A stretch of DNA of 64,000 nucleotides from a virus. How positions within the stretch are numbered: position 1 is the first letter of the stretch; every line of letters begins with the position of its first letter. The DNA lies in IMG/VR virus record IMGVR_UViG_3300045988_108826; one strand, written 5' to 3'. A program made the translations under genes and the position numbers. Below the pieces are notes generated by a model. The model worked only from the letters and a program-made list of their open reading frames with translations. It did not search any database and was not told the origin of the DNA. Of the stretch, positions 2,487-55,578 are shown one piece after another.

Positions 2487-3035
2487 ATGATGACAAAAGA
2501 ACAAATGATGGATGAATATGAAATGTATTCTCACAAAATAGTAAAATCTAAGGATGTAAAACACATGGAAGTTCTAGCTGAGGTTTGCGAATGGCTTTTC
2601 TGTCAAGTTGCTACTAAAATGCCTGATGTAGCTGAAAGCGCACTCGCCCGTTTAGCTGCAACAGAATGGAATAATTACCTATCTCCAACCGAAGCCAAAA
2701 ACATCGGCATGAGAATCGTAAATCAGGACGGTATAAAAGGCTTTCATTGGACTTATGACGTGTTTACAAAGGCAGTGGAAAGTCTTGGAGGTGTTGTAGA
2801 AGAAAAGCCTTACTACAACTCATACGCATTATATGTGACTGCGTGCACAATCTATTCAGACCACGCTTTGAGCATTGCTATGGATTTGGGATATAAAGAG
2901 CCGAAAGAAGTGCCTAACGAGAAAATGGCTTTGTCATGCTATCGAAAGGCAGTTGAGAAACTGAAAGACATTGACGGTGGGTTTCAAGTCAGAAAATATT
3001 TCAAAGGAAAGATGTACGCAGATTCACCAATGTGA
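2487..3035 (+). CDS. Hypothetical protein
   Basis: A 182-aa ORF. Confidence 0.7.
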   Translation: MMTKEQMMDEYEMYSHKIVKSKDVKHMEVLAEVCEWLFCQVATKMPDVAESALARLAATEWNNYLSPTEAKNIGMRIVNQDGIKGFHWTYDVFTKAVESLGGVVEEKPYYNSYALYVTACTIYSDHALSIAMDLGYKEPKEVPNEKMALSCYRKAVEKLKDIDGGFQVRKYFKGKMYADSPM

Positions 3036-3130
3036 TTTGAAGCGTATAGAAGATAAGTTAGACTTGATACTTGACAAACTTAACAGTATGAATGGAATAA
3101 AAGGCTTCGGAGTAAACGTATTGGCTAACA

Positions 3131-3337
3131 TTGTCGGAAATAGAATTGACGGACGATAAAAAGGTTATTATTATGTGCAACAATACATCATGCCCTGTAT
3201 ATCGTGAAGAACACGATGAAAGGCTAAACATAGAGGAACGTATCAGAGAACTTTTAGGTGAACTTACAAGAGAGCTACCTATACAAGAGTTCATAATGAT
3301 TAAGAAAGAAATTGAATACTACATTGACAAGTTATAA
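3131..3337 (+). CDS. Small hypothetical protein (ATG start more likely at 3173)
   Basis: The tracked start is TTG. The internal start MCNNTSCPVY... gives 54 aa. Confidence 0.5.
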   Translation: MSEIELTDDKKVIIMCNNTSCPVYREEHDERLNIEERIRELLGELTRELPIQEFIMIKKEIEYYIDKL

Positions 3338-10255: not shown

Positions 10256-10657
10256 TTAGATAATCTCCAACAGATTTGTCTGTTTAATCTCACGGAGAGT
10301 TAAGTCCTCCATACCTTGCTTGATGTATTCCTGCATCTTCTTGTTGGCTTCGTTCATGTCGGCAGCAAACAAGGCTACTACCCATGACTTTTCTTTTTCC
10401 TTACCTTTCTCGTCTACATAAGTAGAGATAAGTTTCGCCTTGAAAATAGGAGTATCTTCCTTCTTTTCGTTTACTACTTCAATAACAGAAGAGCGTTTCA
10501 TTGCTACGATATCCGCTTCACTATTATACAATTCCAGCCCACGTTGTTCGACTTCGCTCCACAATTCAGCATTTTCTACCAAGAAGCTTTCTTTTACTTC
10601 CTTGTCCTTGCCTTTGTTATCTTGTTTTGTTACTTTAAGAGTTACTTCGTAATACAT
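10256..10657 (-). CDS. DUF4494-like protein
   Basis: MYYEVTLKVTKQDNKGKDKEVKESFLVENA... resembles the DUF4494 N-terminal pattern as I recall it. Confidence 0.5.
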   Translation of the reverse strand: MYYEVTLKVTKQDNKGKDKEVKESFLVENAELWSEVEQRGLELYNSEADIVAMKRSSVIEVVNEKKEDTPIFKAKLISTYVDEKGKEKEKSWVVALFAADMNEANKKMQEYIKQGMEDLTLREIKQTNLLEII

Positions 10658-10659
10658 AA

Positions 10660-11016
10660 CTATTCCTCCTTATTATCTTCTTCGTTTAACATATATTCGT
10701 CTACAAACTTATCCAATGCCTGAATACATTTGTCGGGTAATTGCTTAGCCGTTTCGTTTGACTTGATGTAGTCAATAGTGCCGCCTACGCCCCAAATCAT
10801 AAATGCATCCTTTGTGCTTGGGGTTAATACAAGTGCTATCATTAAAAACAGACTTACAAAAATGCTAATTACAAAATGTTTAGCTTTTCCGTTTTTAATC
10901 TCTTTATCAACCCATCTTATAAAGCATACAATAACTGCAATAATAGATAGAGCTGAAAGCACAAAAAGAAGTGCTTGTATTGCATCAAGTCTTGTTATCC
11001 AATAAATTTCATTCAT
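10660..11016 (-). CDS. Membrane protein (2 TM segments)
   Basis: Contains two long hydrophobic segments. Confidence 0.7.
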   Translation of the reverse strand: MNEIYWITRLDAIQALLFVLSALSIIAVIVCFIRWVDKEIKNGKAKHFVISIFVSLFLMIALVLTPSTKDAFMIWGVGGTIDYIKSNETAKQLPDKCIQALDKFVDEYMLNEEDNKEE

Positions 11017-12167: not shown

Positions 12168-12557
12168 TCAAAAAGGAAGTTCGCTTGATATTCCATTGTC
12201 TTGTGCTACTGCTTCACTCGCTTTAGGCACATCACCACTACTTTGTGCAGCTACTTGCGTCTGACCTCCTCCCGAACGCTTGAATACAGACCAAGCACGG
12301 ATAGTATTGTACCAACGTCCTTTAAACTCACGAGCATCGAAGTTATACATAATATCCACCTCGTCATTCATCTGAATGTTGAATTGTTGGATTTTCTCCG
12401 TACCGAAAACTTCAAAGCATACTTTCTGAGGATATGAATCATGTGTTTCAAGCACATATTCCTGAGAAGCCCAAGTGCCTTTCTGTGAAGTTCCCGTTTT
12501 CATTTGCATTACTGCGATGATTCTACCGCTAATTTTCTGTTTGTTTTCTTCTGCCAT
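12168..12557 (-). CDS. DUF3127-type OB-fold ssDNA-binding-like protein
   Basis: Contains ISGRIIAV...QEYVLET...YPQKVCFEVFG...GRWYNTIRAW, with a C-terminal SSELPF tip like an SSB tail. Confidence 0.65.
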   Translation of the reverse strand: MAEENKQKISGRIIAVMQMKTGTSQKGTWASQEYVLETHDSYPQKVCFEVFGTEKIQQFNIQMNDEVDIMYNFDAREFKGRWYNTIRAWSVFKRSGGGQTQVAAQSSGDVPKASEAVAQDNGISSELPF

Positions 12558-12591
12558 ATCTATATGTTTTTAATGGTTTGTTTTCTTGTTA

Positions 12592-12622
12592 CAAAGATAG
12601 CAAATTGGTTTGAAGTTTCAAA
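12592..12622 (-). promoter_or_regulatory. Bacteroides-type promoter for the SSB-like gene
   Basis: On the minus strand, TATCTTTG (12599-12592) and TTTG (12622-12619) are separated by a 19-nt spacer. Confidence 0.5.
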
Positions 12623-12626
12623 GTAT

Positions 12627-12935
12627 TTACTTCCAAAATTCGTACCATTTTTTGCTTTTATATTTTGATAGTTCAGATTCCATTTTAGATATTGTATCTT
12701 TTAAGTTTTGTATCACCTCTTTTGCTTCCGATAATTTTTCTTCACAATCGTTGTACCTATTAGTCCAATATATCGTATTGTTAATAGATGCGTTTCTTGA
12801 TGATTGTAATTCTTCAATTTCCTCTTTTGTATATCCGTATAGTTCTACAAAACATTTGTTTGAATTTTGTATTAATTGGTTATACTCCGAAAGCGGCATC
12901 GTGACCGTCTTAGTGTCTTGTTCCATAACTTCCAA
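12627..12935 (-). CDS. Coiled-coil hypothetical protein (tracked start is TTG; an ATG lies at 12926)
   Basis: A 102-aa ORF. Confidence 0.65.
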   Translation of the reverse strand: MEVMEQDTKTVTMPLSEYNQLIQNSNKCFVELYGYTKEEIEELQSSRNASINNTIYWTNRYNDCEEKLSEAKEVIQNLKDTISKMESELSKYKSKKWYEFWK

Positions 12936-13000
12936 TAACTTTAATCAGTAACTCAATGTTTCTTTCAATTCTCTCGCAAACGATGTCTATTTCCGTCATA

Positions 13001-13207
13001 TCACCAATCCGTACTTAATGCTAACTTGATTGTTTCTTCGCCTAAGATTTCTATGGCTTGCTGAGCTAAATACAATGTCTTAAAATGAACCACTTCGGCA
13101 GCTTTAAACGTATATTCGTCTGTGCAATCATCTGCCTTTCGTCTGATTCCCTGCTATCGCACGCCCTCTTGGAATTTCACCAAGTCTTTCATTGCAGGGT
13201 TATTCAT
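13001..13207 (-). pseudogene. Small ORF interrupted by one in-frame TAG
   Basis: MNNPAMKDLVKFQEGVR-TAG(13154-13156)-QGIRRKADDCTDEYTFKAAEVVHFKTLYLAQQAIEILGEETIKLALSTDW. Confidence 0.3.
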
Positions 13208-13261
13208 CCAACCGAAACGTAACTTCTCCGATAAGGTTTGGATATATTGTTTTGTTAAGGT

Positions 13262-13307
13262 ACAAAAACAAGAAAACCGTAATCAGATTTTGATTATCTG
13301 ACTACGG
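13262..13307 (-). terminator. Strong intrinsic terminator
   Basis: On the minus strand, an 11-bp stem CCGTAGTCAGA/TCTGATTACGG is followed by TTTTCTTGTTTTT. Confidence 0.65.
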
Positions 13308-14158
13308 CTCTCGTATTTGGTGCGCCTTGCAGATAACCTCGTTTCCGAGTTTGAGACGCTTATCTACAATCCTTAGCGCATATAAAAAGTTTTAATATGT
13401 CTACCTTATGCTTCAAATGCGTCTCAATTCATCTGAATACACTGCGAATATAATACATAAATTCCAAACATCCAAATTTATTAACTTTATTTAACTTTAT
13501 GGGAATTAATCACCAAATTGGCGACATTCCCGTAGGCAACATTGATTTGCTGTTTAAGCATCTTCTTACTGCCTTTTCAATTAAATAAAGAACTCTTTTC
13601 ATTGTTATTTGTTTTTGGTTAGTGCATCGGCAGGATTCGATACCTGCAACCGCTTCCGCACTTCTGCGCTGAAACCTTTTTTGTTTAATGTGTGGTTCGG
13701 CTACCACATTACAGTTTTTTTGCGTCTACTTCCGCCACAATGCAAGTTCCTCTCATCATCCACCACCGAGAGGGAGTGCCTACTAACGATTAGGATAAGC
13801 CAACTTTGTGCTTACGTGTTTCGTTCCGCTTTTATTACGTAATTATTATGCGGCTGTTGTAGCGGTATCGGCAGGGTTCACACCTGCATGATAGGAGTTT
13901 TAAGATTTATTATTAACATTGTTTACTCAACGTCTGTGATTAAATCACAATCTTTTTGAACTCGTGGGTGATTTGTCAAGCGTTAATTGTTCTTTTACGG
14001 CTACACCCTATTAAGCTATGCCATTGCCAACCTATCTATAAGAGCTACACTTTAGCGTCTATATTCCGCCACGATACCATTCTCAAATTCAAAAGCATCT
14101 ATTCTCACGAACCAATGCTTTCTAGTTGAAAATATGAGCTATTTTAAATTAAACTATG

Positions 14159-14189
14159 CAAATATACAAACTTATTTTATATCTGCAAA
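14159..14189 (-). promoter_or_regulatory. Bacteroides-type promoter reading into the non-coding locus
   Basis: On the minus strand, TATATTTG (14166-14159) and TTTG (14189-14186) are separated by a 19-nt spacer. Confidence 0.45.
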
Positions 14190-14462
14190 ATTTTCTATCA
14201 TTTTTTTACAAGTTTCTACTTTATCACGCAAATTCTTGTCGTATTTCAGGCGAAATTCCATATTTATAACATGATGTCTTATGTTGGAATGAACAAATCC
14301 GTAAATCTCGCCTAGCTTTATGTATTTCAGGTCTGTATATTGTCTTAAAAGATAAAACAGTGTAGCACGTGCTTCTATGTATTCCATCTTTTTAGTGTTC
14401 CTAAATAAGTCCTCTATTCCGAAAACTTTAGAAACTACATTTTCATAACATTTAAGTTTCAT
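14172..14462 (-). CDS. DnaA domain IV-like helix-turn-helix protein
   Basis: IEARATLFYLLRQYTDLKYIKLGEIYGFVHSNIRHHV parallels DnaA C-terminal ARQIAMYL..LT..SL..IG..FG..DHTTV. Confidence 0.55.
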   Translation of the reverse strand: MKLKCYENVVSKVFGIEDLFRNTKKMEYIEARATLFYLLRQYTDLKYIKLGEIYGFVHSNIRHHVINMEFRLKYDKNLRDKVETCKKMIENFADIK

Positions 14463-14465
14463 ATC

Positions 14466-14849
14466 CTATTCCTCCACACTTAATGCTTCGTCAATACTAT
14501 CTTCTGTCTTAGGCTTGTTGCCCCACCTTCTCTTATAGTTAGACCACGGAAACATGTGACCGATAAACTTTACCTGCTCATAGAATCCGGCTTCCTTTAT
14601 TTTCAGATACTCGTGCTTCACCAACGGATTGAAGCAAAGCGAAAGGTAATGCGTTATATTCTGCGGATTCGGTCGTCTTGGTGTCACATACATTTCCATC
14701 AGCAAGTGTCCTTTGCTTGTAAAGTGCATACCGTTTTCTTTTATCGGTATGCTGATACATTCTACGGTTTCTCCGTTGAAAACCCTTTCGTGAACTTCTG
14801 CACCAATCAGTCGTTCTACTTCCAATACTTGTTTATACTGCTGCGGCAT
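14466..14849 (-). CDS. Hypothetical protein
   Basis: A 127-aa ORF. Confidence 0.7.
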   Translation of the reverse strand: MPQQYKQVLEVERLIGAEVHERVFNGETVECISIPIKENGMHFTSKGHLLMEMYVTPRRPNPQNITHYLSLCFNPLVKHEYLKIKEAGFYEQVKFIGHMFPWSNYKRRWGNKPKTEDSIDEALSVEE

Positions 14850-15301: not shown

Positions 15302-16414
15302 TTAATTTTTAAGTTTTCTGTTTAATATTTTATCTATTTCATCTATCTGGTCGTACTTAATTTCTATCAGTTTTATTTTATGTTCTTTACAATATTGACG
15401 CAGCCTTTTGTCTCTATCTACTTGAATAGCAAAATCATCTTCAGTACGATGAAAGAAAGGTATTTTTTTATAGTGTTGCACTCCGTTAAATTCTATAATA
15501 ACATTTAGTCGTGGCAAATAAAAATCAGCCTTAATATTATTCCTCGAAAACATTTGTGGGTCAATATTTATGCTATATTGTCTTATATATTCTATTCCCT
15601 TTAAAGTAAGAAAATATTCTATTTTATTCTCTCCCAATGATGTCTTACATTTCGGACACCCCTGTCCATTCAGATGATTATTTGGTGACTGCCAAAACTC
15701 GTCATGCTCAGGACACACTATGCATACTTTCTTTTTTGCACTTATATATTCCACTCTGGTGTAATCATATTTGCATCCGTGTATTAATTTTGACATTTCA
15801 ATAAAATATTCTGTATTTTTAGTTTGTTTTTCTGCCATTGATTTAAATCCGCAAATAGGACAACCTTTCCCTTGTAAGTGATTGTCAGGAGTTTGCCAAA
15901 ATTCGCCATGTATTGGACATAAAATACAAACTTTTGTATTCATGTCTTTGTACTTCACTTTATCATAGATATATTTATCACCATGAACTTTAACTGCTCG
16001 TGCTATGAAAATTTCAGTGGTTATCTTAATTTTACCCTTACAGGCAGGACATTCTTGACCACTTAAATGGTTGCTTGGTGCTTGCCAGAACTCTCCGTGT
16101 ATCGGGCATATTATACAAACTTTAGTTTTATTATCCTTATAATCAACTTTACTATAATCGTATTTCCCATTGTGGATTTTTCTTGCACATTCTATAAATG
16201 ATGTTGTATCTTTTTTTATTTTTCCACCACAATGTGGACATCCACTCCCTCTTAAATGATTAATAGGAGTCTGCCAAAAACTACCATGTTCTTTACATAT
16301 AATTTCAACCTTTGTCGTGCATTTTTCATACACAACTTTAGTATAATCATACCTATCCCCGTGAACTTCTTTTGCTCTCGCAATAAATTCTTCTGTTGTT
16401 AATCTTTTACTCAT
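15302..16414 (-). CDS. Free-standing homing-endonuclease-like protein: 4 Zn-ribbon repeats plus a Vsr/DUF559-like PD-(D/E)xK domain
   Basis: The repeat HGxKYDYxKVxYxxxxxKVxIxCxxHGxFWQxPxxHLxGxGCPxC occurs four times. It is followed by ADFYLPRLNVIIEFNGVQHY. Confidence 0.75.
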   Translation of the reverse strand: MSKRLTTEEFIARAKEVHGDRYDYTKVVYEKCTTKVEIICKEHGSFWQTPINHLRGSGCPHCGGKIKKDTTSFIECARKIHNGKYDYSKVDYKDNKTKVCIICPIHGEFWQAPSNHLSGQECPACKGKIKITTEIFIARAVKVHGDKYIYDKVKYKDMNTKVCILCPIHGEFWQTPDNHLQGKGCPICGFKSMAEKQTKNTEYFIEMSKLIHGCKYDYTRVEYISAKKKVCIVCPEHDEFWQSPNNHLNGQGCPKCKTSLGENKIEYFLTLKGIEYIRQYSINIDPQMFSRNNIKADFYLPRLNVIIEFNGVQHYKKIPFFHRTEDDFAIQVDRDKRLRQYCKEHKIKLIEIKYDQIDEIDKILNRKLKN

Positions 16415-16551: not shown

Positions 16552-18495
16552 TTATTTTATATCTACAACAAAATCTTCATCTGTCACAATCATTTTTATT
16601 AACTGATTATTTATTGAAGGTATATTGCTTTCATTGATAAGTTCGCTGTCGTCAATAAACAAAGGTAGATTGATATCATAGAACTTCTGCAATGCTAAAG
16701 CTAAGTCAATACCAATCAACACCTTACTTGCATGGTTTGTAACACTTGCACTTACGCCCATATTGTCTGTGACCTTACAAGTATCAATGACATTTCCCGA
16801 TTTATTTGTTTCAGTCATTTCTACGTGTAGATAATCAAACTTACTATTTACTCTATAAGAAATAATCGAAGCCTTTTCACGCTCATATCTTTCAACCGCA
16901 TTTAGCTTTCCTTCAAGTAAGGCTAATTCAGAAGCACTATCTCTAAGAGATGATTGAAATTCTTTAATCTTATCTATCTGTTTGTCATATTCATCTTTTA
17001 ATCCAAGTTTTTTTGAATTGGCTTCAATATCATTCAAAAGCTCCCTTTTCATATTTTGCAATGCGCTTGTATCTTCACTTGGAATATCCGTTAAATTTGC
17101 CTCATGGTATGCTATAATTCCCAGTTTTTCTTTTCCTTCCTTAGTATCACGATATTTCACAAAATTATTTCGCAAATTATCCAACTCTAAAACAAGCAGT
17201 TCCTTACTCTGCAAAGGTTTTTCTTCATACCCTTTATCTATGATAGCTTGCAATTCTTCTATCTCGGACTTTACTTGCACGATTTTTTCGTTGTTTGATT
17301 TACCTGTTGCCACTATTGATTTGTGTTTTGCTTCGCGCTGTTCAAAGAATCTCTGTTTTGCTTCTTCAAGTTTTTCTCCTTGTAACGGTTGCCCGCAATA
17401 GCTGCAAACTTCACCCTCAAACTGCATTGACTTGACATTTTCGTTTTCTTTGAGAAGAACTTTCCTACATTCCTCGTAAGCTCTCAGTCTTTCTTTCGCT
17501 AATTTTATCTCTTTTTCAGCGTCTTCTAAAACTTGTTTATTTTTTCTATTATCACGTTCTATCTGTGCATTATTACTATCCACATCAGCTATCTGTGTTT
17601 TTATTTTATTGGCTTCGTATATTGGCTTTGTATTGTATTTGTTTTCAGCTTCCGCGTATTCTTGTTTCAACTTGTTTATCTCAGCCAATTCAGCATCTCT
17701 TTTTTTAATATATACTTTTGCTTGCTCGTTACTTCCCAATATTAATTTATCTATACTCTCAATTTGTTTCTTTGCATCTTCTATTTCCTCTCTAATTACA
17801 TCAAGCCCGCTTATGTCAGGTAACGATGATTGAAGAGCATTAATAGTAATTGGTAAACTTTCAATATTCTGTTTAATAGGTTTCATTTGACCTTTAATAC
17901 TTTCCTTGATTTTTTCGGGAGGATATTTATCAAGTTCGTTTTTAATGATTGAATAGTCTCCTTCAAAATCATCATCTTTAATTTCTCCTACTAAATGTTC
18001 AAAAATACCTCTAAGGTATCTCCAATCCATACCTAAGAAATAATTAATATTTAGCATTAATTTTAATTTAGGGAAAGGCGCAAATGTTTCTTCTATAAAC
18101 GATTTATAATCTCCTGCACTTCTCTCAATGCAGTCTATATAAAACTTGTAATCGTCAGTAGCTTTCTTTTCGTATTCCTCACGACCTTTCTTTCTCGTCC
18201 AACCTTGCTTTGCGGTCTTTTTCAGCGTGTATTCTACTCCGTCAATATCCAACACGGCTTCGGCAGATGCAAGTTTTGAGTTTTCGTAAGTAAGCGGCAA
18301 GGTATCATCGAACAATTTGTAGTTGATTCTGTCTTGTTCGTCTGCACCAGTAAGCAACCAAAGCCACGCATTGAAGCAGCTTGACTTACCTGATTTGTTT
18401 CTTCCTTTGATTTCTGTATTGTGACCGAAGTTTATAACTTTGTTCTGTCCTCGCCAATCCTGCAAGGTGAGTTTTTTAAGAGTTATTGTTTTCAT
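16552..18495 (-). CDS. SbcC/Rad50-like (T4 gp46-like) recombination ATPase
   Basis: Has an N-terminal Walker A (GRNKSGKSS), a long coiled coil with a central CSYC zinc-hook-like CxxC, and a C-terminal LPLFIDDSE. Confidence 0.8.
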   Translation of the reverse strand: MKTITLKKLTLQDWRGQNKVINFGHNTEIKGRNKSGKSSCFNAWLWLLTGADEQDRINYKLFDDTLPLTYENSKLASAEAVLDIDGVEYTLKKTAKQGWTRKKGREEYEKKATDDYKFYIDCIERSAGDYKSFIEETFAPFPKLKLMLNINYFLGMDWRYLRGIFEHLVGEIKDDDFEGDYSIIKNELDKYPPEKIKESIKGQMKPIKQNIESLPITINALQSSLPDISGLDVIREEIEDAKKQIESIDKLILGSNEQAKVYIKKRDAELAEINKLKQEYAEAENKYNTKPIYEANKIKTQIADVDSNNAQIERDNRKNKQVLEDAEKEIKLAKERLRAYEECRKVLLKENENVKSMQFEGEVCSYCGQPLQGEKLEEAKQRFFEQREAKHKSIVATGKSNNEKIVQVKSEIEELQAIIDKGYEEKPLQSKELLVLELDNLRNNFVKYRDTKEGKEKLGIIAYHEANLTDIPSEDTSALQNMKRELLNDIEANSKKLGLKDEYDKQIDKIKEFQSSLRDSASELALLEGKLNAVERYEREKASIISYRVNSKFDYLHVEMTETNKSGNVIDTCKVTDNMGVSASVTNHASKVLIGIDLALALQKFYDINLPLFIDDSELINESNIPSINNQLIKMIVTDEDFVVDIK

Positions 18496-18497
18496 AA

Positions 18498-19463
18498 TTA
18501 TTTCATTTCACTGATTAATGCATTTCCACAAGTAATTCTATCACTATCTTCTTCTTTTGAAGGAACAAATACGATGACATCCCATCCTTCTTCTAGCAGC
18601 GGCTGTTCGAATTTGCGGTACACATCATAATCAGCATATCCAGTTACTTCAAAACCATTTTCAATAGCTGAATTTGTTTCATGAATTGGGGTAATTTTTA
18701 CAATAAACTTATTCTTGTCAAATAACTCAGAGAGTTTCTTTGCATCAAGAATAGTCTGTGCAGTTACAGGAAAATTCAAAGTATATTTTCTACCTTTGGG
18801 CATTGGTAAATCTTCAGCTAATTCTGATATTTCAGTTAAAGATAAACTTTTTCTATCAAATAACTGATTTCTTTGTTCGTCATCAGTTGAATTGATAGAG
18901 AACTGAAGTCCTGCTTCACCATTGTAAAAATCATTTTTTATTTCGCACCAAGTAAGAATATACTGTTTCAATTTCTTATTTGCTTTTGGTAGCATAGTAG
19001 ATACTACTGGATGAACAGTCTTTGCTTTTAATCCACAAGTCTTTACAAGTTCTTTCAGCATCATAGAAAAAGCCAGCACATTTTCATTCCAAGTTGGTTC
19101 TCCCATTCTTGCAAAGTGAACATTAAATCGTTCAGTTTCTCTTACATCTTCATTTTTGATAATCATTTTAATTTGATAAGCAAGTTCATTTACTGAAACA
19201 TTACCAAAGAAGCCAAATTTAGGAACATCACAGAATTTACATTTCATCGGGCAACCTTTCTGTGTAGAGATAGTAGCAACCCATTTATTACGCAAATCTA
19301 CTTCTGTGTTAGCTACTCCGTTGATTTCTTTTGTCAGACCGAGAAAGTCAGCCTTGATGTTATTTTCTTTTCCGTAATCACCTACTGTAAGAAATTCAAG
19401 TTTCTTTTCGGTATCTACATAAATCTTTCCTGTGTGAGTTTTAATTGTTTTCATATTATACAT
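18498..19463 (-). CDS. Radical SAM enzyme, RlmN/Cfr-like core
   Basis: Contains CPMKCKFC (CxxxCxxC), then RMGEP, VVSTM, LQFSINS, IVKITPIHE and a C-terminal DRITCGNAL, in the same order as RlmN/Cfr motifs as I recall them. Confidence 0.7.
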   Translation of the reverse strand: MYNMKTIKTHTGKIYVDTEKKLEFLTVGDYGKENNIKADFLGLTKEINGVANTEVDLRNKWVATISTQKGCPMKCKFCDVPKFGFFGNVSVNELAYQIKMIIKNEDVRETERFNVHFARMGEPTWNENVLAFSMMLKELVKTCGLKAKTVHPVVSTMLPKANKKLKQYILTWCEIKNDFYNGEAGLQFSINSTDDEQRNQLFDRKSLSLTEISELAEDLPMPKGRKYTLNFPVTAQTILDAKKLSELFDKNKFIVKITPIHETNSAIENGFEVTGYADYDVYRKFEQPLLEEGWDVIVFVPSKEEDSDRITCGNALISEMK

Positions 19464-45095: not shown

Positions 45096-45169
45096 GGGCA
45101 AAATGGGTGAGTGATTTAGCCAACACTCTGCAAAAGTGTTTTACAGCGGTTTGAATCCGCTTTTGCCCT
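45096..45169 (+). tRNA. tRNA-Cys: tRNA-Cys (anticodon GCA), 74 nt, with some non-canonical positions
   Basis: Acceptor stem GGGCAAA/TTTGCCC; anticodon arm ACACT-CTGCAAA-AGTGT; T arm AGCGG-TTTGAAT-CCGCT; discriminator U73. Against it, position 8 is A and the D-stem has one mismatch. A19/U56 may covary. Confidence 0.65.
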
Positions 45170-45255
45170 CTATGTTTTCATAGATGTTGTTTTTCACCAT
45201 GAGCAGGATTTGTGTTCTCATATTATTACAGTTTAAATTTTTACGCAAAAGGGTT

Positions 45256-47607: not shown

Positions 47608-50600
47608 TTAAAATGTTCCAAGTTTGGGTGATTCGTAATAAACAGCTATAAATACTTTTGCATCCATAAGAGACCAGTTGTTATAGTTACTTGTCGTACT
47701 ATATTCAAAGTATGTACTATAAATGTTTTCAATTATTGCAACAGTTAATTTTCCATTAGATAAAGCTGTTATCTGAACATGATAAAGTGTATTCCCTATA
47801 TTATGTTTAACCCTATAGCGTCCTGTTGCATATTTTGATACAGAAAATGTAATAGGATTTCCTGAGCTGTTTGGAATATTAGTTCCCATTTTATCAATGA
47901 CACTTCCGGAACTTGATATATAAGCAGAATATATACATTTAACATAATGAACTGGAAGTCCTAATTCGTCTTTATTTTTACTGTATGTTAGAGTAATGCC
48001 AGTTTTATGGATGTGAATACCTGTCTGAGATTCATCCAATATTTTAAGTTCTCCAAATGAAAGTCTTGTTTCACTTCTAAGTATTTCTGCACCAGAACCA
48101 TCATAGGTATACAGTTCTATTCCTGACGGAGTTATTCCTATTGCTTCACTTCTTCTATCATTTTTTTTATCATAACTATACATATTAATAACTCCATAGT
48201 TAACAGGACCGAAGTTACCAAAGTATATATTTAAAAGTGAATTATTGCTTTTGGATATATTCATACCGTCTTTATCTACTAAAGTACTTATACCATCGGC
48301 ATTTGTTGCATTAAGTGTTTTTACTACAAGAGCATCCGCTTCAATCAGACTTGTACGAATATGCCCTCCCTCAATGATTGTATTTCCGGCTGTTGCTGCT
48401 GAAACCATATCAGCATAGCTGGCATATCCTAACTTTTTAGCCATATCCTCTTTAGAGGAGTTTATGTCAGAAGTGACATCGCCTGAGTCAGCTTTATTAT
48501 TGATTGTGCTCTGCAAACTACTATTAAGAGAACTGAATGTAATCTTTCCTTGTAAAGATACATCTTTTCCGAAAATACTTATGGCGTTCTCTTTAACGGT
48601 AATTCCTGTCTTAATTTGTTCTGTTGTGGAATAATCGCTAGGTGCAGCACTCCACGGTGTTGACCTTTCTCCTTTTTCGACTTTGAGATTCCAAACACGG
48701 AAGTAACCTATTGGTTTATTGTCTTGTAACACAGAAGAAATGTAATAAAAAACCATTTCAATATTAGAATCTTTGATATTTGTATCACTACCACCTAAAG
48801 TTAAGGGAGGAGTAATAATTTTACCTGTACCATTAGATTTTAAATTAGGAATACTATAAGCAGTCCAACCAAATTTATCGTCAAACTGAACCCTAAAATA
48901 TGAGTTCTCCGTTGCGTTCCAAATAAGATTTCTTGCTTCGTATTCAAATGAAATGGTTACTATATCTCCTTTTTTTAAACCTGACGTTTTGTATAATGTA
49001 TTTCTTTGATTTGCTACATTATTAAAAGTAGTCAATCTTTTTTCGTTGCTTGTCAATAAAGCATAGTTTTGATTAACAGATTCATCTACTTTGTAGGCAT
49101 AAACTTTTGTAAAGTAAGCTTCGCCTAAATTAGATGTCCCTTTAATACTGAAACATATACTTGCAGAAATAGAATCTGTTGGTATTGTTATATATCCTGA
49201 CAAGGTATTCCATCCTTTTGTTTTGGATTCTATTGCATCAAGCTCTATGTATTTGTATGTTTCATTTTTCAGTTTTATTCTAAGACCTACTGTTACTTTA
49301 TAATTACACTTCTCCGCATTAACTAAGGCAGTTACATAATATTTTTCTCCTACATTAACATTAACGTATGACTTAGCATAAATCGTACCAACTGTACTTT
49401 TCATACAATAACTTGTAGGACAACTATTGTTGGCAGTTGCCGCGCTAACTCGTGAACCTCCGGTATAAAGCAAGCTATAATTAGCATCATCGAAGCAACT
49501 GTCAGGAACAATGTTGGTTATCTTGCTCACACTTGTAACCTTAGAAGAAATACCAATCCAAATGTTATCAGGTTGTAACGCGACTTCTGCTTTGCTTACA
49601 CGTGTAGTCAGCGCTGACAAATTGTTATTAGTCTGATTCAGGTTGTTCTGAACGGTAGTTACTTCTGTCTTTTCGGCTTTTAGCAATAATTTTTCTGAGT
49701 GCTGTTCTATGACTGTCTGCATAGATTTTACAGTCGTAATCGTTGCGTACTTCTTGTCTGCATTTTGTCCGGCTGTTGTTATAGCATCATTCTTAGCCTT
49801 ATTTGCCTTGTTGGTAGCATCTGTAGCAGCAGTAGATATAGCGTCCTGCTTTGCCTTATTTGCCTTGGAAGTTGCGTCAGCAGAGGCAGTACTTATTGCT
49901 GAAGTCTTTGCATCATTCGCCTTTTTGGTTGCATCGCTCGCAGCAGTATTAATTATTTCCTGCTTAATAGTAGTAATTTCAGTAGAAGAAACCTTACTAT
50001 TAATTTCACCTTCTAATACACTGAATTGTGATGTTACCTCTTTTTTATATTCAGTCAAAGCGTTTTCCGAATCTTCGGGAGCAGGTGACCAATCAGTTGC
50101 TTTATTGCCTATTTCTCCCTTTAAAAGACAGATGTATATCTTCTTATTTAAAGAACTATCTGATATAGTAAAAAAAATCAAACAACCTTCTCTATTTGTT
50201 GTTTTATCAATAGGAAATGTATATTGATACTTTACCCAATTATCTGATAACTCACTTATCCTCAAAGTCTTTGATGATATATTTCCATTATATTTATTTT
50301 GAATTTGTATTGACATTGGGGTTTTTATATTCTCTTGGCATTTAGCATAAAATGAAATTGTGACATTTTTGTTTTCTAACTCCGCATAAGGTATATTAGA
50401 GTAAGAAGTTGATGCCATTTTTATATCTCCAGTTCCTGCCTGAGTTTTCAAGGAAACAGTAACTTCATCTAACGGTATTCCTCCTACATTTTCAGATACT
50501 TGTTCTTTTGAAACAGAATATTTTCCTGTACCCCAATTATTAGCATACCAGTCACCACCATATTTAGTATTTCTAAATAAATTTCTACCTCCAATCTGAA

Positions 50601-53600
50601 TATTATTAATAGCATTATTGGTGTATTCTTTAGAAGAAGTTACAGCAGCAGTAATACTGTTGTTGGTCTGCTCAAACTGTGAACTTACCGTTTTCTTATA
50701 AGAACTTAAATCGTTGGCTATACCTTGCGCATAATCACGTGCCGCATTTGAGATAGCGGTTAAAGCATTTGTTCTCTGTGTATAATACGTTGTCTGCTTT
50801 GTAGCAAAATCAGAAGGAATAGCAATTGTTTCAGGAGATGAAGCCGTAAGAGTTACCAACACAGCACGATAAGTCGTGTGTGCATTGTTGTAATTTGTAG
50901 GAGTACCTAGATTGTACTTACTATATCCGTTTGCAATCTGTGTCTTGTCTGCGTCAATTCTAGCTATTTCTTCTTTCAATGACTGCTTTTCTGTTGGAGA
51001 AATAGAACCGTCAGAAGCCCAACTATCTAATCGGCTCTTAGCTTCATCAGCATCACTTTGTGCATTGTTTGCTGCCGCTTTTGCGTTGGCAGCATCCTTT
51101 ATTGCCTGATTAGCCTTTTCTTGTGCCGCATCTGCGGTTTGTCGTGCAGCATCTGCAAGGGATTTAGCCTTTGCTGATATAGCGTTCAATAAATCGGTGC
51201 GAGCATCGTAGTAATCCTTAAACTTGCTTCTGAATGCAGCTCCTGATATATTACTTGTTGTTGAAAGACTTGAAAGCAACGGTGTTATATAAGCACTTAG
51301 CGTATTATAAGCCGTATCGTAAGCAGTCCTGCTTACTCCGTACTTGTCAGCACTTGCATTGTTTTTAGGCTTTTCAGAAACAATAATATCCCATTCTTTT
51401 TTTGTTTCCTGCTTTTCCTGAGCAGTCAGCTTGTTGTCATTTGCTATATCAGACAATAAGGCGTTTGCAGTTGCCGCGCTTTGAACGGCGTTATTGGCTG
51501 TCTGCTGTGCACTATCAGCTGCTTGTTTAGCTGCATCTGCCGCAGCCTGAGCCTGATTTGCCTTAGTATCATCCGTATACTTAGAAGCAAGTTCCCAGTG
51601 CTCAATAGAAAACTGAGCATTTGCTTGTTTGGCAGTCTTGCATCGAAGCAAATCATTCTTGTAGCTTCCGTATGTAGCATTAACCCACAAATCTCCAATA
51701 TCATACACCGAGGCATTAGACGGGGTAGTCACAAATACCCTTCTCTTTCCATCTGCCGTGTCCTGCGCTTTTTTAGCGTCAGCCAAAGCTTTTGTGATAT
51801 CAGAATCGGTTATTACCTGCCATGTATACTTACTACCACTCACTTGAAAGCGATACGCTTTTCCATTACCATCATAATACAAGTCGCCTAAATGTACGTT
51901 CTTGTCTTCGTTTGTAGTCCAATTTACAGCAGGCTCGTTACTTAATGTAGGAACTGGTTCATAAAACCATGTTTCAATAGCACCGTCTATTTGGTTTTTA
52001 ACAGCTTCTAAATCCTTAGATAACTGATTTACAAATGAAATGTTTTCAGATAAATCAGATATAGCATCGTCTACTTTTGTATTGACTTCCCCTACTGCGT
52101 TGTCGATATAGTCCTTTACGCTTTCTCCCGAACTGAATCTTATTGCATCGGCAATAATCATTACTTCCGAACGAGAAAATGAAACAAATTCTTTTCCGTC
52201 CAATGAGTAAGAATTAATTCCACGATACAATTTAAAATACGGTGCATCATTGCCGTATGCAGACAAGATAATAGCTGCCTGACGTGTAGCATCAGACTTA
52301 TTACCCAACTGTACGATATCATCGCCAGCCTTAGGTTCAGTAGAACCTGTATCGCAATCGGTTTTAGAAAGGTCTATATAGTTATCTCCTGTGCCTACAA
52401 CAGCACGCCAATAGTAGGTATTAGTGACGTTCTCATTAACACCTTCCTTAACGTTAAAAGTCTGTGCCCTTGCCAAGTCACCGACAACAAATTCCTGCTC
52501 TATTGTTCTTTCTCCGTCCGTGTTCTCAAAATAGCAACGATAGAAATCTCCTTTATCCTCTACTTTGGCACAAGACATCGAAGCAGGAGTAAGGATAATC
52601 TGACCTCCAACATGCTTAATCTGCTGTATAAGTAGTTGAATAAATGTAGCTACCTTTCTTACAAGCATACGGTCTACCTCCAGATAACTGTCACCGTTTT
52701 CGTCTTTTTTAAGGCAAAATCCAGCTCCTAAAGCACCAGTAGAGAAATTAGCTGATTCTATTCCGCTTCTAACGAGAATAGAAAGCAAATCTGCAACACC
52801 CTGCTCGTCTATTTTAGCACCTTTCAGTCCTTTCTTGTAGTCGCCTATCGTCAAAGCACCTCTAAGCAACAAGTTAAGCAACTCTGCTGCTCCGTCTGCT
52901 GAAATCTTAGCACCTGACTTTTTGCTTAGATATGTACCTATTTCTAAACCGTCAATCAGCTTCACAAGGTCGTTGAATGTCTTTTCTCCCTTTGCGCTGT
53001 CGGCTACATCCTTTCTAAGAAAGTATTTGTTTCCCTGACTTAGTATGTCACCGCTTCCTATATTGGAAAGTACGTCCTGCTTAACACCGTCAAGCATTGT
53101 TTGTAATGAGTTCTGACCGATAGAAAGCGTATCTACCAAGTTTACTTCTATTTCAGGCAATGGCGAATCTGAACTCATTGTATATGTAAAGTTGTCTACA
53201 TAGAAAGTATACTGTACCTTGTTGTATTCTACTATAAGCCGTGAATTTTCGTTCAACTGTTCAAGAATATCAGGATGTTCTGCAAAGAATATACGGCTGA
53301 ACTTTATGGAGAAGTTAAACTTCTCGCTGTTGTTTTCTGCCATATACTGAATGAGGTATTCTTTAAGGTCGTTTTCGGCTTTGTATATGTACGAATCGGG
53401 CATGTTTATGTTCAGTATGACAAATGTATCACCTGCTTTCGGTTTGAGGTTTTTTGATACATTAGGCATGACGTTTGTATAGGTTGTATCGTCTTTCTTT
53501 AGTGCAACCCATACTTCATAATTTACCGTATCGTTCTGTCTGTCCTGCGGTGTTTCTTTCTGCAATCCGTCACGACCGCATCTTACGTTTCCGTTCTCGT

Positions 53601-55509
53601 CACGTAACAGATTTCCGCTATCGTCTATCTGAACCAAATTCTTTTGTGTTTCATCTCCTGCTCCTACTTCAAATGTGCAAGAGCCGCACATACCGCTTGT
53701 AAACGAAAACTCCATATTTCCGCTTTCAGAGGCTTGGTTGAAAAGATTGAATCCGTATTCTCCGTTGAACTTTCTAAGCTTTCCGAAGAAGTAAGGATGA
53801 ACGTATTCGTTTTTCTCGCCGTCAAACTCATCACTGTCATTTTCGTCATACGCAAATTCGGTGAACATGTCTATTCTAAGTCCTTCCGCATTTGTCATTC
53901 CCTTGATAGACGGTTTAATATCTTCTGCGGTAACTTTGCCCTCTAAAGGATTGCCCTCTGAATATACGTTCTCAAATGTGTAGTATTCGTCTGAATCAGG
54001 CTTCTGATATGTGTCGTTCAGCGCATTGTAGAATCTTTGCCCGCCTTCCGTTTCTCTGTATATAGGCGGCATAAGTTCCGTACAATAAGGTATCTGCTTG
54101 CCTATATTCTGTGTAAAGTAGTCACCTACTACTAGTTTAGGGCTTCCGTTAAGACTTATACCTATTTCTTCAAGCTTGACTTCCTTTCCGTTCAAGTCCC
54201 AATATTCATAGTATGAACTAGGGAATGAAGCCTCAAAGTAGAATTTGGCACTTGTCACAGAATCACTTACAATGCCAGTGTAGGAAACCTTGAATACAAC
54301 CTTGATTGTGTAGTCACCTGCTGCTACCTTATCTCCGTTGTTCAGGACTTTGTACTGTGTATCTTCTTCGCCATATCCCTTAATCGTAAATGACGGTGAA
54401 CTTAAAGCACCCAAGCTGAAATTAATAGGCATAAAGGCGGTATTGACCGTAATGCTTGCATCATGCAGTATCGTTACGTTTACAAGGAATGTAGCCGTAC
54501 TTTTATAAGCACTGCCTTCTTTTCTTACTGGTATTGATATTTCAGAATTTGCTTCGTAGTCGACAAATGTTGACGAATTGTAAAACTCGTAGGAATTTAT
54601 GACAACGACATTTTCGCCACTTTTCTTTGAGTAGATACATTTGTCAGTCGAACCTACTTTCTCGGCAAATTTGACCGCATCTGCAAGCAATAAATCGGAT
54701 TGTGTCAGACCTTGATTGCCTGAATATACATTTATCGAAACTTCACCTTTTGGTGTCTTGTTCGGATAGTAGTAAGGAATGTTGTCGCTGCTTCCTACAC
54801 CAGTGATTCTGTTTACAAGGTTGTAGTTTGCGTTCTCTTTTGATACGGAAAGCAAAGCACCGTCAATGCCGTACTTCATCACCGTAGGTATTGCGTTCTG
54901 CTCATATCCTACGTGTATGGTCTTTCCGACAAAATAGTAAGGCAGCTTATATACATTGTATATTTCCTGCAAAGCTTCAAGAATGTATTTATCCTCAAAA
55001 GATACAAGCTGGCTTTCAGAAGTTATGCCCTCGTCAATTACGGCTGTATAGTCTATCTTTGAGTAGGACATGGAAGCATTAAGTCTAGCGACAAATTGTG
55101 TTATGTCACCCATGAACTGTACTTTCAGACTGTTTGAAACAACACCGTCAATCGTGCTGTCACCCTGAACCGCATCTATGAAATAGGTATGGTTGAGGAC
55201 TTCACGTTCGGATTTGAGCGTAACCGAATGTTCGTATCTTTCATCCTCGTTGCTTTTAGACGATGAGGGCGTATCTTTTACATAGAACTTTTCTCCGTCA
55301 AATGAAGCATATATCTTGTCCGTCCAAAGCTTGTCGAGGCAAAGTCTGTGCTTTACGGTAGCCTCTATTGTGGGTACACCGCCCATTCTTCCGTTTGCAT
55401 CGTATTTGAAATCGCCTATGACAATCTGTTCCGTCTTGTTTGGGAACGGTGTATCCTCGATTCCGTCTACGAATGTGTATAACTTTAAAATCTTCTCCAT
55501 TGTGCACAT
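47608..55509 (-). CDS. Giant tail fibre / host-specificity protein (2633 aa)
   Basis: One uninterrupted ORF. It has Ala/Gln/Asn-rich coiled coils, beta-rich lectin-like modules, and a tail-tip-like N-terminal domain. The start could be the Met 4 codons further in. Confidence 0.8.
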   Translation of the reverse strand: MCTMEKILKLYTFVDGIEDTPFPNKTEQIVIGDFKYDANGRMGGVPTIEATVKHRLCLDKLWTDKIYASFDGEKFYVKDTPSSSKSNEDERYEHSVTLKSEREVLNHTYFIDAVQGDSTIDGVVSNSLKVQFMGDITQFVARLNASMSYSKIDYTAVIDEGITSESQLVSFEDKYILEALQEIYNVYKLPYYFVGKTIHVGYEQNAIPTVMKYGIDGALLSVSKENANYNLVNRITGVGSSDNIPYYYPNKTPKGEVSINVYSGNQGLTQSDLLLADAVKFAEKVGSTDKCIYSKKSGENVVVINSYEFYNSSTFVDYEANSEISIPVRKEGSAYKSTATFLVNVTILHDASITVNTAFMPINFSLGALSSPSFTIKGYGEEDTQYKVLNNGDKVAAGDYTIKVVFKVSYTGIVSDSVTSAKFYFEASFPSSYYEYWDLNGKEVKLEEIGISLNGSPKLVVGDYFTQNIGKQIPYCTELMPPIYRETEGGQRFYNALNDTYQKPDSDEYYTFENVYSEGNPLEGKVTAEDIKPSIKGMTNAEGLRIDMFTEFAYDENDSDEFDGEKNEYVHPYFFGKLRKFNGEYGFNLFNQASESGNMEFSFTSGMCGSCTFEVGAGDETQKNLVQIDDSGNLLRDENGNVRCGRDGLQKETPQDRQNDTVNYEVWVALKKDDTTYTNVMPNVSKNLKPKAGDTFVILNINMPDSYIYKAENDLKEYLIQYMAENNSEKFNFSIKFSRIFFAEHPDILEQLNENSRLIVEYNKVQYTFYVDNFTYTMSSDSPLPEIEVNLVDTLSIGQNSLQTMLDGVKQDVLSNIGSGDILSQGNKYFLRKDVADSAKGEKTFNDLVKLIDGLEIGTYLSKKSGAKISADGAAELLNLLLRGALTIGDYKKGLKGAKIDEQGVADLLSILVRSGIESANFSTGALGAGFCLKKDENGDSYLEVDRMLVRKVATFIQLLIQQIKHVGGQIILTPASMSCAKVEDKGDFYRCYFENTDGERTIEQEFVVGDLARAQTFNVKEGVNENVTNTYYWRAVVGTGDNYIDLSKTDCDTGSTEPKAGDDIVQLGNKSDATRQAAIILSAYGNDAPYFKLYRGINSYSLDGKEFVSFSRSEVMIIADAIRFSSGESVKDYIDNAVGEVNTKVDDAISDLSENISFVNQLSKDLEAVKNQIDGAIETWFYEPVPTLSNEPAVNWTTNEDKNVHLGDLYYDGNGKAYRFQVSGSKYTWQVITDSDITKALADAKKAQDTADGKRRVFVTTPSNASVYDIGDLWVNATYGSYKNDLLRCKTAKQANAQFSIEHWELASKYTDDTKANQAQAAADAAKQAADSAQQTANNAVQSAATANALLSDIANDNKLTAQEKQETKKEWDIIVSEKPKNNASADKYGVSRTAYDTAYNTLSAYITPLLSSLSTTSNISGAAFRSKFKDYYDARTDLLNAISAKAKSLADAARQTADAAQEKANQAIKDAANAKAAANNAQSDADEAKSRLDSWASDGSISPTEKQSLKEEIARIDADKTQIANGYSKYNLGTPTNYNNAHTTYRAVLVTLTASSPETIAIPSDFATKQTTYYTQRTNALTAISNAARDYAQGIANDLSSYKKTVSSQFEQTNNSITAAVTSSKEYTNNAINNIQIGGRNLFRNTKYGGDWYANNWGTGKYSVSKEQVSENVGGIPLDEVTVSLKTQAGTGDIKMASTSYSNIPYAELENKNVTISFYAKCQENIKTPMSIQIQNKYNGNISSKTLRISELSDNWVKYQYTFPIDKTTNREGCLIFFTISDSSLNKKIYICLLKGEIGNKATDWSPAPEDSENALTEYKKEVTSQFSVLEGEINSKVSSTEITTIKQEIINTAASDATKKANDAKTSAISTASADATSKANKAKQDAISTAATDATNKANKAKNDAITTAGQNADKKYATITTVKSMQTVIEQHSEKLLLKAEKTEVTTVQNNLNQTNNNLSALTTRVSKAEVALQPDNIWIGISSKVTSVSKITNIVPDSCFDDANYSLLYTGGSRVSAATANNSCPTSYCMKSTVGTIYAKSYVNVNVGEKYYVTALVNAEKCNYKVTVGLRIKLKNETYKYIELDAIESKTKGWNTLSGYITIPTDSISASICFSIKGTSNLGEAYFTKVYAYKVDESVNQNYALLTSNEKRLTTFNNVANQRNTLYKTSGLKKGDIVTISFEYEARNLIWNATENSYFRVQFDDKFGWTAYSIPNLKSNGTGKIITPPLTLGGSDTNIKDSNIEMVFYYISSVLQDNKPIGYFRVWNLKVEKGERSTPWSAAPSDYSTTEQIKTGITVKENAISIFGKDVSLQGKITFSSLNSSLQSTINNKADSGDVTSDINSSKEDMAKKLGYASYADMVSAATAGNTIIEGGHIRTSLIEADALVVKTLNATNADGISTLVDKDGMNISKSNNSLLNIYFGNFGPVNYGVINMYSYDKKNDRRSEAIGITPSGIELYTYDGSGAEILRSETRLSFGELKILDESQTGIHIHKTGITLTYSKNKDELGLPVHYVKCIYSAYISSSGSVIDKMGTNIPNSSGNPITFSVSKYATGRYRVKHNIGNTLYHVQITALSNGKLTVAIIENIYSTYFEYSTTSNYNNWSLMDAKVFIAVYYESPKLGTF
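49765..49935 (-). repeat. Three in-frame 57-nt tandem repeats inside the fibre gene
   Basis: They encode DATKKANDAKTSAISTASA / DATSKANKAKQDAISTAAT / DATNKANKAKNDAITTAGQ. Confidence 0.8.
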
Positions 55510-55578
55510 ATATTTAGCACAAATATACTACATTTTTGTACTTATTACAATTATGCAAAGTTAAACTATGTTAATTTG

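Follow-up and report, generated by a model that had tools for sequence, protein, structure and literature searches.

RNAs that carry a foreign domain within a tRNA-like frame are known from nature and from the laboratory. The classic case is transfer-messenger RNA (tmRNA, SsrA), which works with SmpB. It has a tRNA-Ala-like acceptor and T-arm domain with a G3-U70 pair and no D-stem, and a large insert that starts with a T-arm-adjacent helix and an H-type pseudoknot whose loop is A-rich; a tag open reading frame (ORF) is also present. In the engineered tRNA scaffold of Ponchon and Dardel, the acceptor stem, T-arm and D-arm are kept and a structured RNA replaces the anticodon stem-loop, the rationale being that cellular factors recognize the construct and that it is precisely processed and shielded from degradation (PMC3753655). 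Among phage RNAs, GOLLD and ROOL occur near tRNAs and in prophages (PMC5737381). Here we describe a locus at positions 12950-14171 of a 64,000-nt stretch of viral DNA (IMG/VR record IMGVR_UViG_3300045988_108826; hereafter the window). It contains two tandem tRNA-like RNAs, RNA 1 and RNA 2, in which conserved structured domains, called cargo A and cargo B, are embedded in a tRNA-Leu-derived scaffold. We consider it likely that the locus is an operon of non-coding RNAs built on tRNA-Leu(UAA) scaffolds with exchanged cargo, as part of a phage replication/recombination module.

Anatomy of the two RNAs

The original prediction described this locus as a gene-poor, GC-enriched and hairpin-rich stretch bracketed by a promoter and a strong terminator. 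The absence of an intact gene holds, since the ORF list contains no ATG-started ORF of 60 aa or more inside 12950-14171; the longest frames use GTG or TTG starts and overlap the RNA genes. A recoded genetic code that hides ORFs was rejected, as readthrough of TAG or TGA yields no long frame and code 11 fits the window. GC content is indeed raised (0.379 in the locus vs 0.348 in the whole window) and peaks at 0.426 in 13614-14078, where the two RNA genes lie. The internal repeats are real as well, and their identity is now clear: they are the D-arm boxes of two tRNA-like genes.

A scan for a T-arm with a closing 7-bp stem, with no D-arm required, returns exactly RNA 1 and RNA 2 in 64 kb and nothing in 10 shuffles. 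Both RNAs place a 7-bp acceptor stem on a 5-bp T-stem, include a D-arm, and close perfectly (Table 1). The 5-bp anticodon stem and 7-nt loop of a canonical tRNA are replaced by inserts of ~150 and ~70 nt, respectively. Cargo A of RNA 1 consists of a hairpin (H0), a closing helix (helix P2) and an H-type pseudoknot (stems S1 and S2) with a GUAAAA loop. Cargo B of RNA 2 is made of two hairpins with A-rich linkers between them. The minimum free energy and centroid structures of RNA 2 both correspond to the full tRNA-like frame (z = -2.8), and RNA 1 folds with z = -2.1. An Rfam scan of 12500-14700 gives no match at the gathering threshold or at E values up to 10, and ARAGORN finds neither RNA in the same interval. 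The segment between the two RNAs is possibly a processing spacer. It carries the CCTCTC/GAGAGG hairpin of the original prediction, a real feature that lies 2 nt from its first assigned position and ends 4 nt upstream of RNA 2.

The Bacteroides-type promoter (P1) is found exactly where it had been placed, overlapping the 3' end of the upstream gene. The window holds 13 copies of the motif TTTG-N19-21-TAnnTTTG vs 2.2 expected (~6-fold), a number that none of 100 shuffles reaches. Because of this enrichment, the host of the phage is probably a member of the Bacteroidota. The terminator is also genuine, with a stem longer than the 11 bp first reported: the terminator scan gives 17 pairs at 13312-13272(-), followed by a T-run to ~13262. 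A primary transcript of ~0.88 kb is possible. The notion of one long RNA (~0.85 kb) as the product does not hold, as the stretch is made of modules, namely two distinct tRNA-like RNAs, a second promoter within the unit at 13476-13445 and a third, terminated RNA.

Table 1. Features of the locus, in order along the minus strand
Feature	Position	Strand	Sequence or structure	Basis
Promoter P1, Bacteroides type	14159..14189	-	-33 TTTG 14189-14186, 19-nt spacer, -7 TATATTTG 14166-14159	
tRNA-scaffold RNA 1, cargo A	14078-13863	-	216 nt	Frame scan, homologues, covariation
RNA 1 acceptor stem	14078-14072 / 13870-13864	-	GGTATCG / CGATACC, 7 bp; discriminator G13863	
RNA 1 D-arm	14069-14055 (GCGG-AATATAG-ACGC)	-	TG-GCGG-AATATAG-ACGC	
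RNA 1 cargo, hairpin H0	14054-14036	-		
RNA 1 cargo, helix P2	14035-14031 / 13895-13891	-		
RNA 1 pseudoknot, S1	14028-14026 / 14001-13999	-		
RNA 1 pseudoknot, S2	14008-14004 / 13970-13966	-		
RNA 1 conserved loop	13998-13993	-	GUAAAA	
RNA 1 T-arm	13887-13871	-	GCAGG-TGTGAAC-CCTGC	
Spacer between RNA 1 and RNA 2	13745..13862	-	CCTCTC-13 nt-GAGAGG at 13773-13749	
tRNA-scaffold RNA 2, cargo B	13744-13622	-	123 nt	Frame scan, fold, consensus fold, 31 loci
RNA 2 acceptor stem	13744-13738 / 13629-13623	-	TGCATTG / CGATGCA; discriminator C13622	
RNA 2 D-arm		-	Box TGGCGGAAGTAGACGC; TG-GCGG-AAGTAG-ACGC	
RNA 2 T-arm		-	GCAGG-TATCGAAT-CCTGC, 8-nt loop	
Micro-ORF, possibly coding	13510..13602	-	30 codons, ATG (MKRVLYLIEKAVRRCLNSKSMLPTGMSPIW)	Conserved segment
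Promoter P2	13445..13476	-	TTTG 13476-13473, 20-nt spacer, TATATTCG 13452-13445; one mismatch to TAnnTTTG	
RNA 3, non-coding	13262..13440	-	~175 nt; long stem TGAGACGC/GCGTCTCA, small hairpin, intrinsic terminator at the end	
Non-coding filler, common to the window and L095 only	13099..13261	-	Fold z = +0.3; stops in all frames	
Gene stump	13001..13098 (30-aa ORF 13093-13001)	-	Last ~30 codons (…VVHFKTLYLAQQAIEILGEETIKLALSTDW*)	tblastx, frame translation

Conservation and exchange of the cargos

Cargo A was searched for using only the insert motifs of RNA 1 (TAAAG..CTTATAG..TTG..CGTAAAA). On its own it is present at 117 viral loci, and 116 of 120 matches lie in a closing tRNA frame. Its helices were tabulated over 40 distinct sequences, with the partner strand taken from another sequence as the control. 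Helix P2 is perfectly paired in 37/40 sequences with 12 variants (control 7/162), and S1 in 30/40 with about 10 pair sets (control 35/169). For S2, the seven sequences of the window's clade form 5/5 pairs (control 16/182). In an 11-sequence alignment, the pseudoknotted structure is 95.3% paired vs 81.7% in shuffles and the covariation score is 0.257 vs 0.083, values reached by 0/500 shuffles in either case; pairing falls to 37-49% when the partner strands are slid. Compensatory changes are seen in the acceptor stem, helix P2 and the pseudoknot, where 4/5 pairs of S2 and 2/3 pairs of S1 are compensated. RNAalifold independently predicts the acceptor stem, D-arm, H0, helix P2, S2, P5 and T-arm. 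The H0 loop is variable (UGUAGCU, GAUAGCU, UGAAGCU and others) and lacks U33.

Cargo A occurs in Bacteroidota phages and prophages and also in Firmicutes phages, namely in Brochothrix phage ADU4 and an Oscillospiraceae metagenome-assembled genome. Among annotated phages and plasmids, matches are confined to Brochothrix phages, where they cover 110 nt of a gap that carries no annotation. The ADU4 copy (L001 in our numbering of related loci; OM135992.1 8729-8916, locus 2999-3186) lies in an RNA island with the order ROOL (1492-2055), tRNA-Met, drum (2227-2342), cargo-A RNA, tRNA-Met and tRNA-Lys. The record annotates two tiny 'hypothetical proteins' over this stretch, UKM96427 and UKM96428, which are probably spurious. 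ROOL, GOLLD and drum are likewise phage-borne structured RNAs, often beside tRNAs, and ROOL and drum are joined with a cargo-A RNA in this island; compared with ROOL and GOLLD, the window RNAs are much smaller and embedded in a tRNA frame. None of the ROOL, GOLLD, drum or other Rfam 15 models matches the window RNAs (E up to 10) or the members in L130, L040, L014, L131 and L001.

For cargo B, a cargo-only search with AAAACTGTAATG..TTAAAYAAAA identifies 31 loci with 27 distinct sequences. Both hairpins covary, and the consensus fold shows compensatory changes.

Scaffold and cargo are exchanged as modules: one cargo is found on different scaffolds or on none, and one scaffold with different cargos. 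Cargo A is combined with at least 9 acceptor arms and with several D-arms, including the canonical TGGCGGAATTGGTAGACGC and a compensated TCGG...ACGA form, and in L152 and L240 a plain helix closes it, with neither D-arm nor T-arm. Cargo B is carried by several scaffolds, one with an unrelated D-arm, and is scaffold-less in L247, L254, L261 and L256. At seven loci (L003, L013, L031, L032, L055, L072 and L086) a short 125-nt form of cargo A is followed within ~10 nt by another long RNA that ends in a T-arm-like hairpin (e.g., ACAAGGTTCGATTCCTTGC). Tandem pairs like that of the window seem common.

Origin of the scaffold

In the box TGGCGGAA..TAGACGC we recognize the class II tRNA-Leu D-arm. True 82-nt tRNA-Leu(UAA) genes from a genome scan read GCGGAATGGTAGACGC-A-AAAGA-CTTAAAA-TCTTT. 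Because these genes share the D-arm box and continue into the AAAGA stem, the invariant GC-TAAAG of the family is a relic of the 5' strand of the anticodon stem. On a member in L059, the Rfam tRNA model aligns AAAGU/ACUUU as an anticodon stem closing a 39-nt insert. The window RNAs share with class II tRNA-Leu(UAA) the acceptor/D/T architecture, an identical D-arm sequence, an A15-U48-type '...AT' before the T-stem and the TAAAG relic, but have no 7-nt anticodon loop or anticodon, no A73 and no G18G19/T-loop consensus. A spliced tRNA-Leu(UAA), including one with a group I intron, was considered and rejected; there is no Rfam intron match, and a 5-bp stem with a 7-nt loop cannot be rebuilt.

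The D-arm pattern is found at 90 viral loci, where by our own estimate chance would give a handful. Of its 131 matches, 88 close into the frame and 77 do so perfectly, compared with 3/655 perfect closures for a shuffled 5' arm. The family contains 31 different acceptor arms, each with its own complement, and the acceptor and T stems are perfectly paired throughout. Lengths range from ~70 to 216 nt because the middle differs, with inserts down to 38 nt in relatives. Members belong to Bacteroidota phages and prophages and to Firmicutes phages; many lie inside phage tRNA clusters, where ARAGORN skips them, and none encodes CCA. In cellular genomes the pattern is near chance (38 matches vs ~26 expected, again our own estimate), and the long true members there occur in prophage-like contexts, for example in Chitinophaga (L130) between RecT/YqaJ/YopX-like genes.

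Within the family, a D-loop GG and a canonical TTC T-loop tend to be present or absent together (27/3/1/17, Fisher p ~4e-9, relatedness uncorrected). Discriminator A is present in 49/68 distinct family sequences overall and in 16/26 of subfamily A; canonical scaffolds retain A73, and derived scaffolds of the window type have G, T or C at this position. By E. coli rules, a tRNA-Leu is identified by A73 as its discriminator together with a contact of G18G19 to the T-loop. This set is present in relatives with canonical scaffolds and absent from the window RNAs: RNA 1 has G73, the D-loop AATATAG and the T-loop TGTGAAC, and RNA 2 has C73 and an 8-nt T-loop. Since they lack A73 and the D-loop GG and have non-canonical T-loops, the window scaffolds are probably not aminoacylated.

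These features bear on the idea that the RNAs are tmRNA-like molecules, charged with leucine, that enter the ribosome or another enzyme that uses aminoacyl-tRNA, with the pseudoknot acting as it does in tmRNA. The topology is indeed parallel: a tRNA-like domain is followed by a T-arm-abutting helix leading to an H-type pseudoknot, formed by S1 and S2 with compensatory changes, and to the GUAAAA loop. Leucyl-tRNA synthetase, like AlaRS, ignores the anticodon, which we count in favor of charging, as we do the discriminator A of members with canonical D- and T-loops. Against it, position 3-70 is U-A in RNA 1 and C-G in RNA 2 rather than the G3-U70 alanine identity pair of tmRNA, the D-stem is intact, and ARAGORN and the Rfam tmRNA models are negative. 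The discriminators G and C and the missing elbow GG of the window copies point the same way, and both cargos exist scaffold-less. A tag ORF was looked for past the pseudoknot and rejected: by eye, no frame or stop is common to the window, L130, L050, L001 and L040. We consider an aminoacylated, tmRNA-like RNA very improbable.

In L059, 20-1060(-), five copies of an AGTCAGG...CCTGACTA scaffold lie within 1 kb with small ORFs between them. Three are full copies with different middles, one of which contains a nested T-arm-like hairpin; another copy has no D-arm, and one is collapsed to the acceptor and half of the T-arm. In L074 and L104, an insertion of ~35-40 nt lies within the T-loop itself (GCAGGT[...]TTAAATCCTGC), so that the scaffold tolerates insertion at a second site. 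Elements of 104-122 nt with a weak Rfam tRNA match (30-40 bits) are present in or near phage tRNA clusters in L018 (2832-2946, 3009-3130 and 6686-6789) and L050 (2745-2864), and are probably other types of cargo on tRNA scaffolds.

The same material can be read as decay, with the RNAs as functionless tRNA-Leu pseudogenes, paralogues of a phage tRNA-Leu that died when insertions broke up the anticodon region. The missing anticodon loop, the loss of tRNA-Leu marks in the window copies, and the collapsed and partial copies of L059 would fit, as would a true gene stump nearby and the plasticity of the locus, with close relatives that have lost one copy or carry a chimera (see below). Against this reading, both inserts are conserved modules, present at 117 and 31 viral loci from phages of Bacteroidota and Firmicutes, with compensated helices and pseudoknot; the acceptor and T stems stay perfectly paired across 31 arm sequences, and the cargo persists on different scaffolds and without one. 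Pseudogenes are therefore an unlikely explanation, in our judgment.

Genomic context

Most cargo-A RNAs are located in a replication/recombination module with DUF4494, YqaJ, SSB-like, Lin1244_N and RusA genes. A DUF4494 gene lies immediately upstream on the same strand in 77/119 cargo-A loci, and across 6 RNA variants the proteins are as little as 28% identical. The window has its DUF4494 gene at 10256-10669(-), 3 kb from the RNA operon, and its protein has no informative relative in PDB or PHROGs. Window genes of similar kinds encode an SSB (12168-12557), an SbcC-like protein (16552-18507) and a homing-endonuclease-like protein (15302-16414). The last, read from the minus strand, is a 370-aa protein that combines four treble-clef zinc-ribbon repeats (DUF4379/DUF723) with a nuclease-like region at its C-terminus. 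Its PHROG matches are homing/HNH endonuclease families, and its gene stands three genes upstream of the RNA operon, recalling segB within the T4 tRNA cluster.

Most cargo-A genes are solo with their own terminators behind them, and a canonical tRNA lies within 2.5 kb in just 8/112 cargo-A contexts. The sole canonical tRNA of the window, a tRNA-Cys(GCA) at 45096-45170(+) (40.9 bits), is far from the RNA operon. The largest ORF of the window, at 47608-55527(-), encodes a single 2639-aa protein.

A further reading has the frames serving purely as punctuation: RNase P/Z would cleave a polycistronic transcript at these signals, in the manner of mitochondrial tRNA punctuation, and the inserts would be irrelevant. 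The alternation of scaffold copies with small ORFs in L059 and the many members in tRNA clusters speak for such a role. The window frames, on the other hand, are adjacent with no ORF between them, the solo cargo-A genes have their own terminators, and the inserts are the most conserved, covarying parts and persist without a scaffold. We give this explanation very little weight.

The gene immediately upstream (14172..14462(-)) was predicted to encode a protein like DnaA domain IV. Its 96-aa product does have a DnaA C-terminal-like helix-turn-helix (HTH), with a match to Pfam Bac_DnaA_C (E 3.7e-7) at 30.5 bits, slightly below the 31.5-bit cut-off. The suggestion that the locus is a replication origin or iteron region bound by this neighbor, with the transcript possibly a primer, draws on that domain and on the position of the RNA in the replication/recombination module of most phages. 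It fares poorly: the locus has no iterons, no tandem repeats beyond the tRNA boxes, no AT-rich repeats, one DnaA-box-like 9-mer and no turn in GC skew. Conservation tracks RNA base-pairing rather than DNA motifs, and the HTH gene accompanies the RNA only in three near-identical genomes, close relatives of the window, and at none of the other loci. An origin is thus hardly credible here. Among the three alternatives offered originally, a structured RNA comes closest, though not as a single long molecule, and decayed genes are right solely for 13098-13001.

Downstream elements and close relatives

Three close relatives (L093, L094 and L095) stem from a single metagenome of origin. L094 has no RNA 1, and L095 carries a chimera of RNA 1 and RNA 2 recombined at the D-arm box; the spacer is kept in L094 and gone in the L095 chimera. 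Because relatives carry the modules independently in this way, the product is not one 0.85-kb RNA.

Downstream of RNA 2, the segment 13625-13441 is ~98% identical to L095, vs 85-89% in the flanks, with one R-to-I change. It holds the micro-ORF and promoter P2, and its conservation may reflect a micro-protein or a regulatory element. RNA 3, which follows, has a very stable fold (z = -4.6, with 0/200 shuffles equally stable) and stops in all frames; its substitutions relative to L095 are compensated in this comparison of two sequences.

Promoter P2 is common to the window, L093, L094 and L095, and homology to L093 and L094 breaks just downstream of it, at 13432/13427. Window positions 13431-13099 are replaced by 2.2-2.6 kb of genes in L093 (5032-7652) and L094 (4881-7055). 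The cassette comprises a 290-aa ORF (split in L093), an intact 283-284-aa ORF and, in L094 only, an 81-aa ORF. An ORF of 222 aa that is restricted to L093 has a TDPPYG motif, typical of DNA N6/N4 methyltransferases. The spot downstream of the shared promoter is a hot spot for cassette exchange, with promoter P2 predicted to drive whichever cassette stands behind it in each genome, which is RNA 3 in the window and L095. The stump at the end of the locus is the C-terminus of the 283-284-aa ORF that is intact in L093 and L094. It marks a deletion or replacement scar, and the last ~260 nt of the locus, stump included, are probably a deletion scar.

Proposed function

Taken together, these data lead us to favor an RNA operon that would work as follows. 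P1 would drive a tandem pair of RNAs that descend from a class II tRNA-Leu(UAA) gene. Each keeps the top half of the tRNA, with its 7-bp acceptor stem, D-arm, T-arm and predicted elbow contact, and a conserved, independently folding cargo stands in for the anticodon and variable arms. The micro-ORF, the second promoter and the third structured RNA come next, and the intrinsic terminator closes the operon. The tRNA frame would act as a natural scaffold, enabling the host RNase P and the 3'-end/CCA machinery to excise and stabilize the RNA; the proposed cuts are at 14078/13863 and 13744/13622. The cargo, presented at the site of the pseudoknot and mRNA domain in tmRNA, would serve as effector. 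The sequences establish the anatomy, the membership in a family, the covariation and the exchange of scaffolds and cargos; transcription, processing, stability and any function in trans are what we infer from this anatomy.

Several points weigh against this model. Processing by RNase P and addition of CCA are predicted solely from shape, and recognition by tRNA enzymes may be impaired because the T-loops (TGTGAAC and the 8-nt TATCGAAT) and D-loops of the window are non-canonical. Single-sequence folding does not recover the T-arm of RNA 1. The family counts overstate independent support, since the window itself supplied the search patterns and many members are close kin. Close relatives show that the locus is plastic or can be dispensed with. 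No dedicated protein partner emerged, as ORF clustering around 77 D-arm-pattern loci gave lineage-specific clusters only, and the adjacency of DUF4494, which may be a functional link, is treated here as plain synteny. Finally, RNAs 1-3 are no more complementary to other parts of the window than shuffles are, and no antisense target is seen there. A 15-mer complementarity at 46697, within a coding ORF, was rejected as chance.

Relation to known RNAs and implications

The RNAs are of a kind akin to tRNA-like RNAs with a foreign domain, and have no Rfam 15 model. They differ from tmRNA in lacking G3-U70 and in retaining a D-stem, and from the engineered tRNA scaffold, a laboratory construct, in being natural, tRNA-Leu-based and phage-borne, with two specific conserved cargos and predicted processing. 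Phage T4 offers a parallel in species 1 and species 2 (rnaC and rnaD; 139 and 119 nt), small stable RNAs encoded in tandem at the end of the phage tRNA cluster, beside a homing endonuclease gene. The rnaC RNA ends in a canonical T-arm and an acceptor-like strand. Homology was rejected, as the T4 RNAs have no tRNA-Leu D-arm box and no similarity to the cargos was found. The cargo motif GUUGGC...GCC-GUAAAA-nAACAAU may resemble Cas13b repeats, and a role as an RNA anti-CRISPR that mimics a solitary repeat unit was considered. The Racr survey contains no type VI candidates (PMC10651486). Our literature search yielded no description of the family, which may be listed in the 10,006-csRNA catalogue.

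The two cargo families are present in well over 100 viral contigs, many from gut-type metagenomes, where they escape ARAGORN and Rfam and are at times overlaid with spurious small ORFs by gene callers. Phages appear to have reached the solution that chemists independently found in the tRNA scaffold for stabilizing recombinant RNAs. The precise predicted mature ends may provide a route to phage RNA functions, and the natural scaffold and cargo parts may serve RNA engineering in Bacteroidota. It is conceivable, if rather doubtful at present, that the top half of tRNA-Leu serves phages as an exchangeable scaffold of general use for display, and that the cargos act in trans on a host system. They might, for instance, be decoys or sponges that occupy a CRISPR effector or a defense nuclease directed at tRNA or RNA, or else regulators linked to the replication/recombination module. 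If true, this would be a new and widespread class of phage counter-defense or takeover RNAs unseen by current annotation pipelines.

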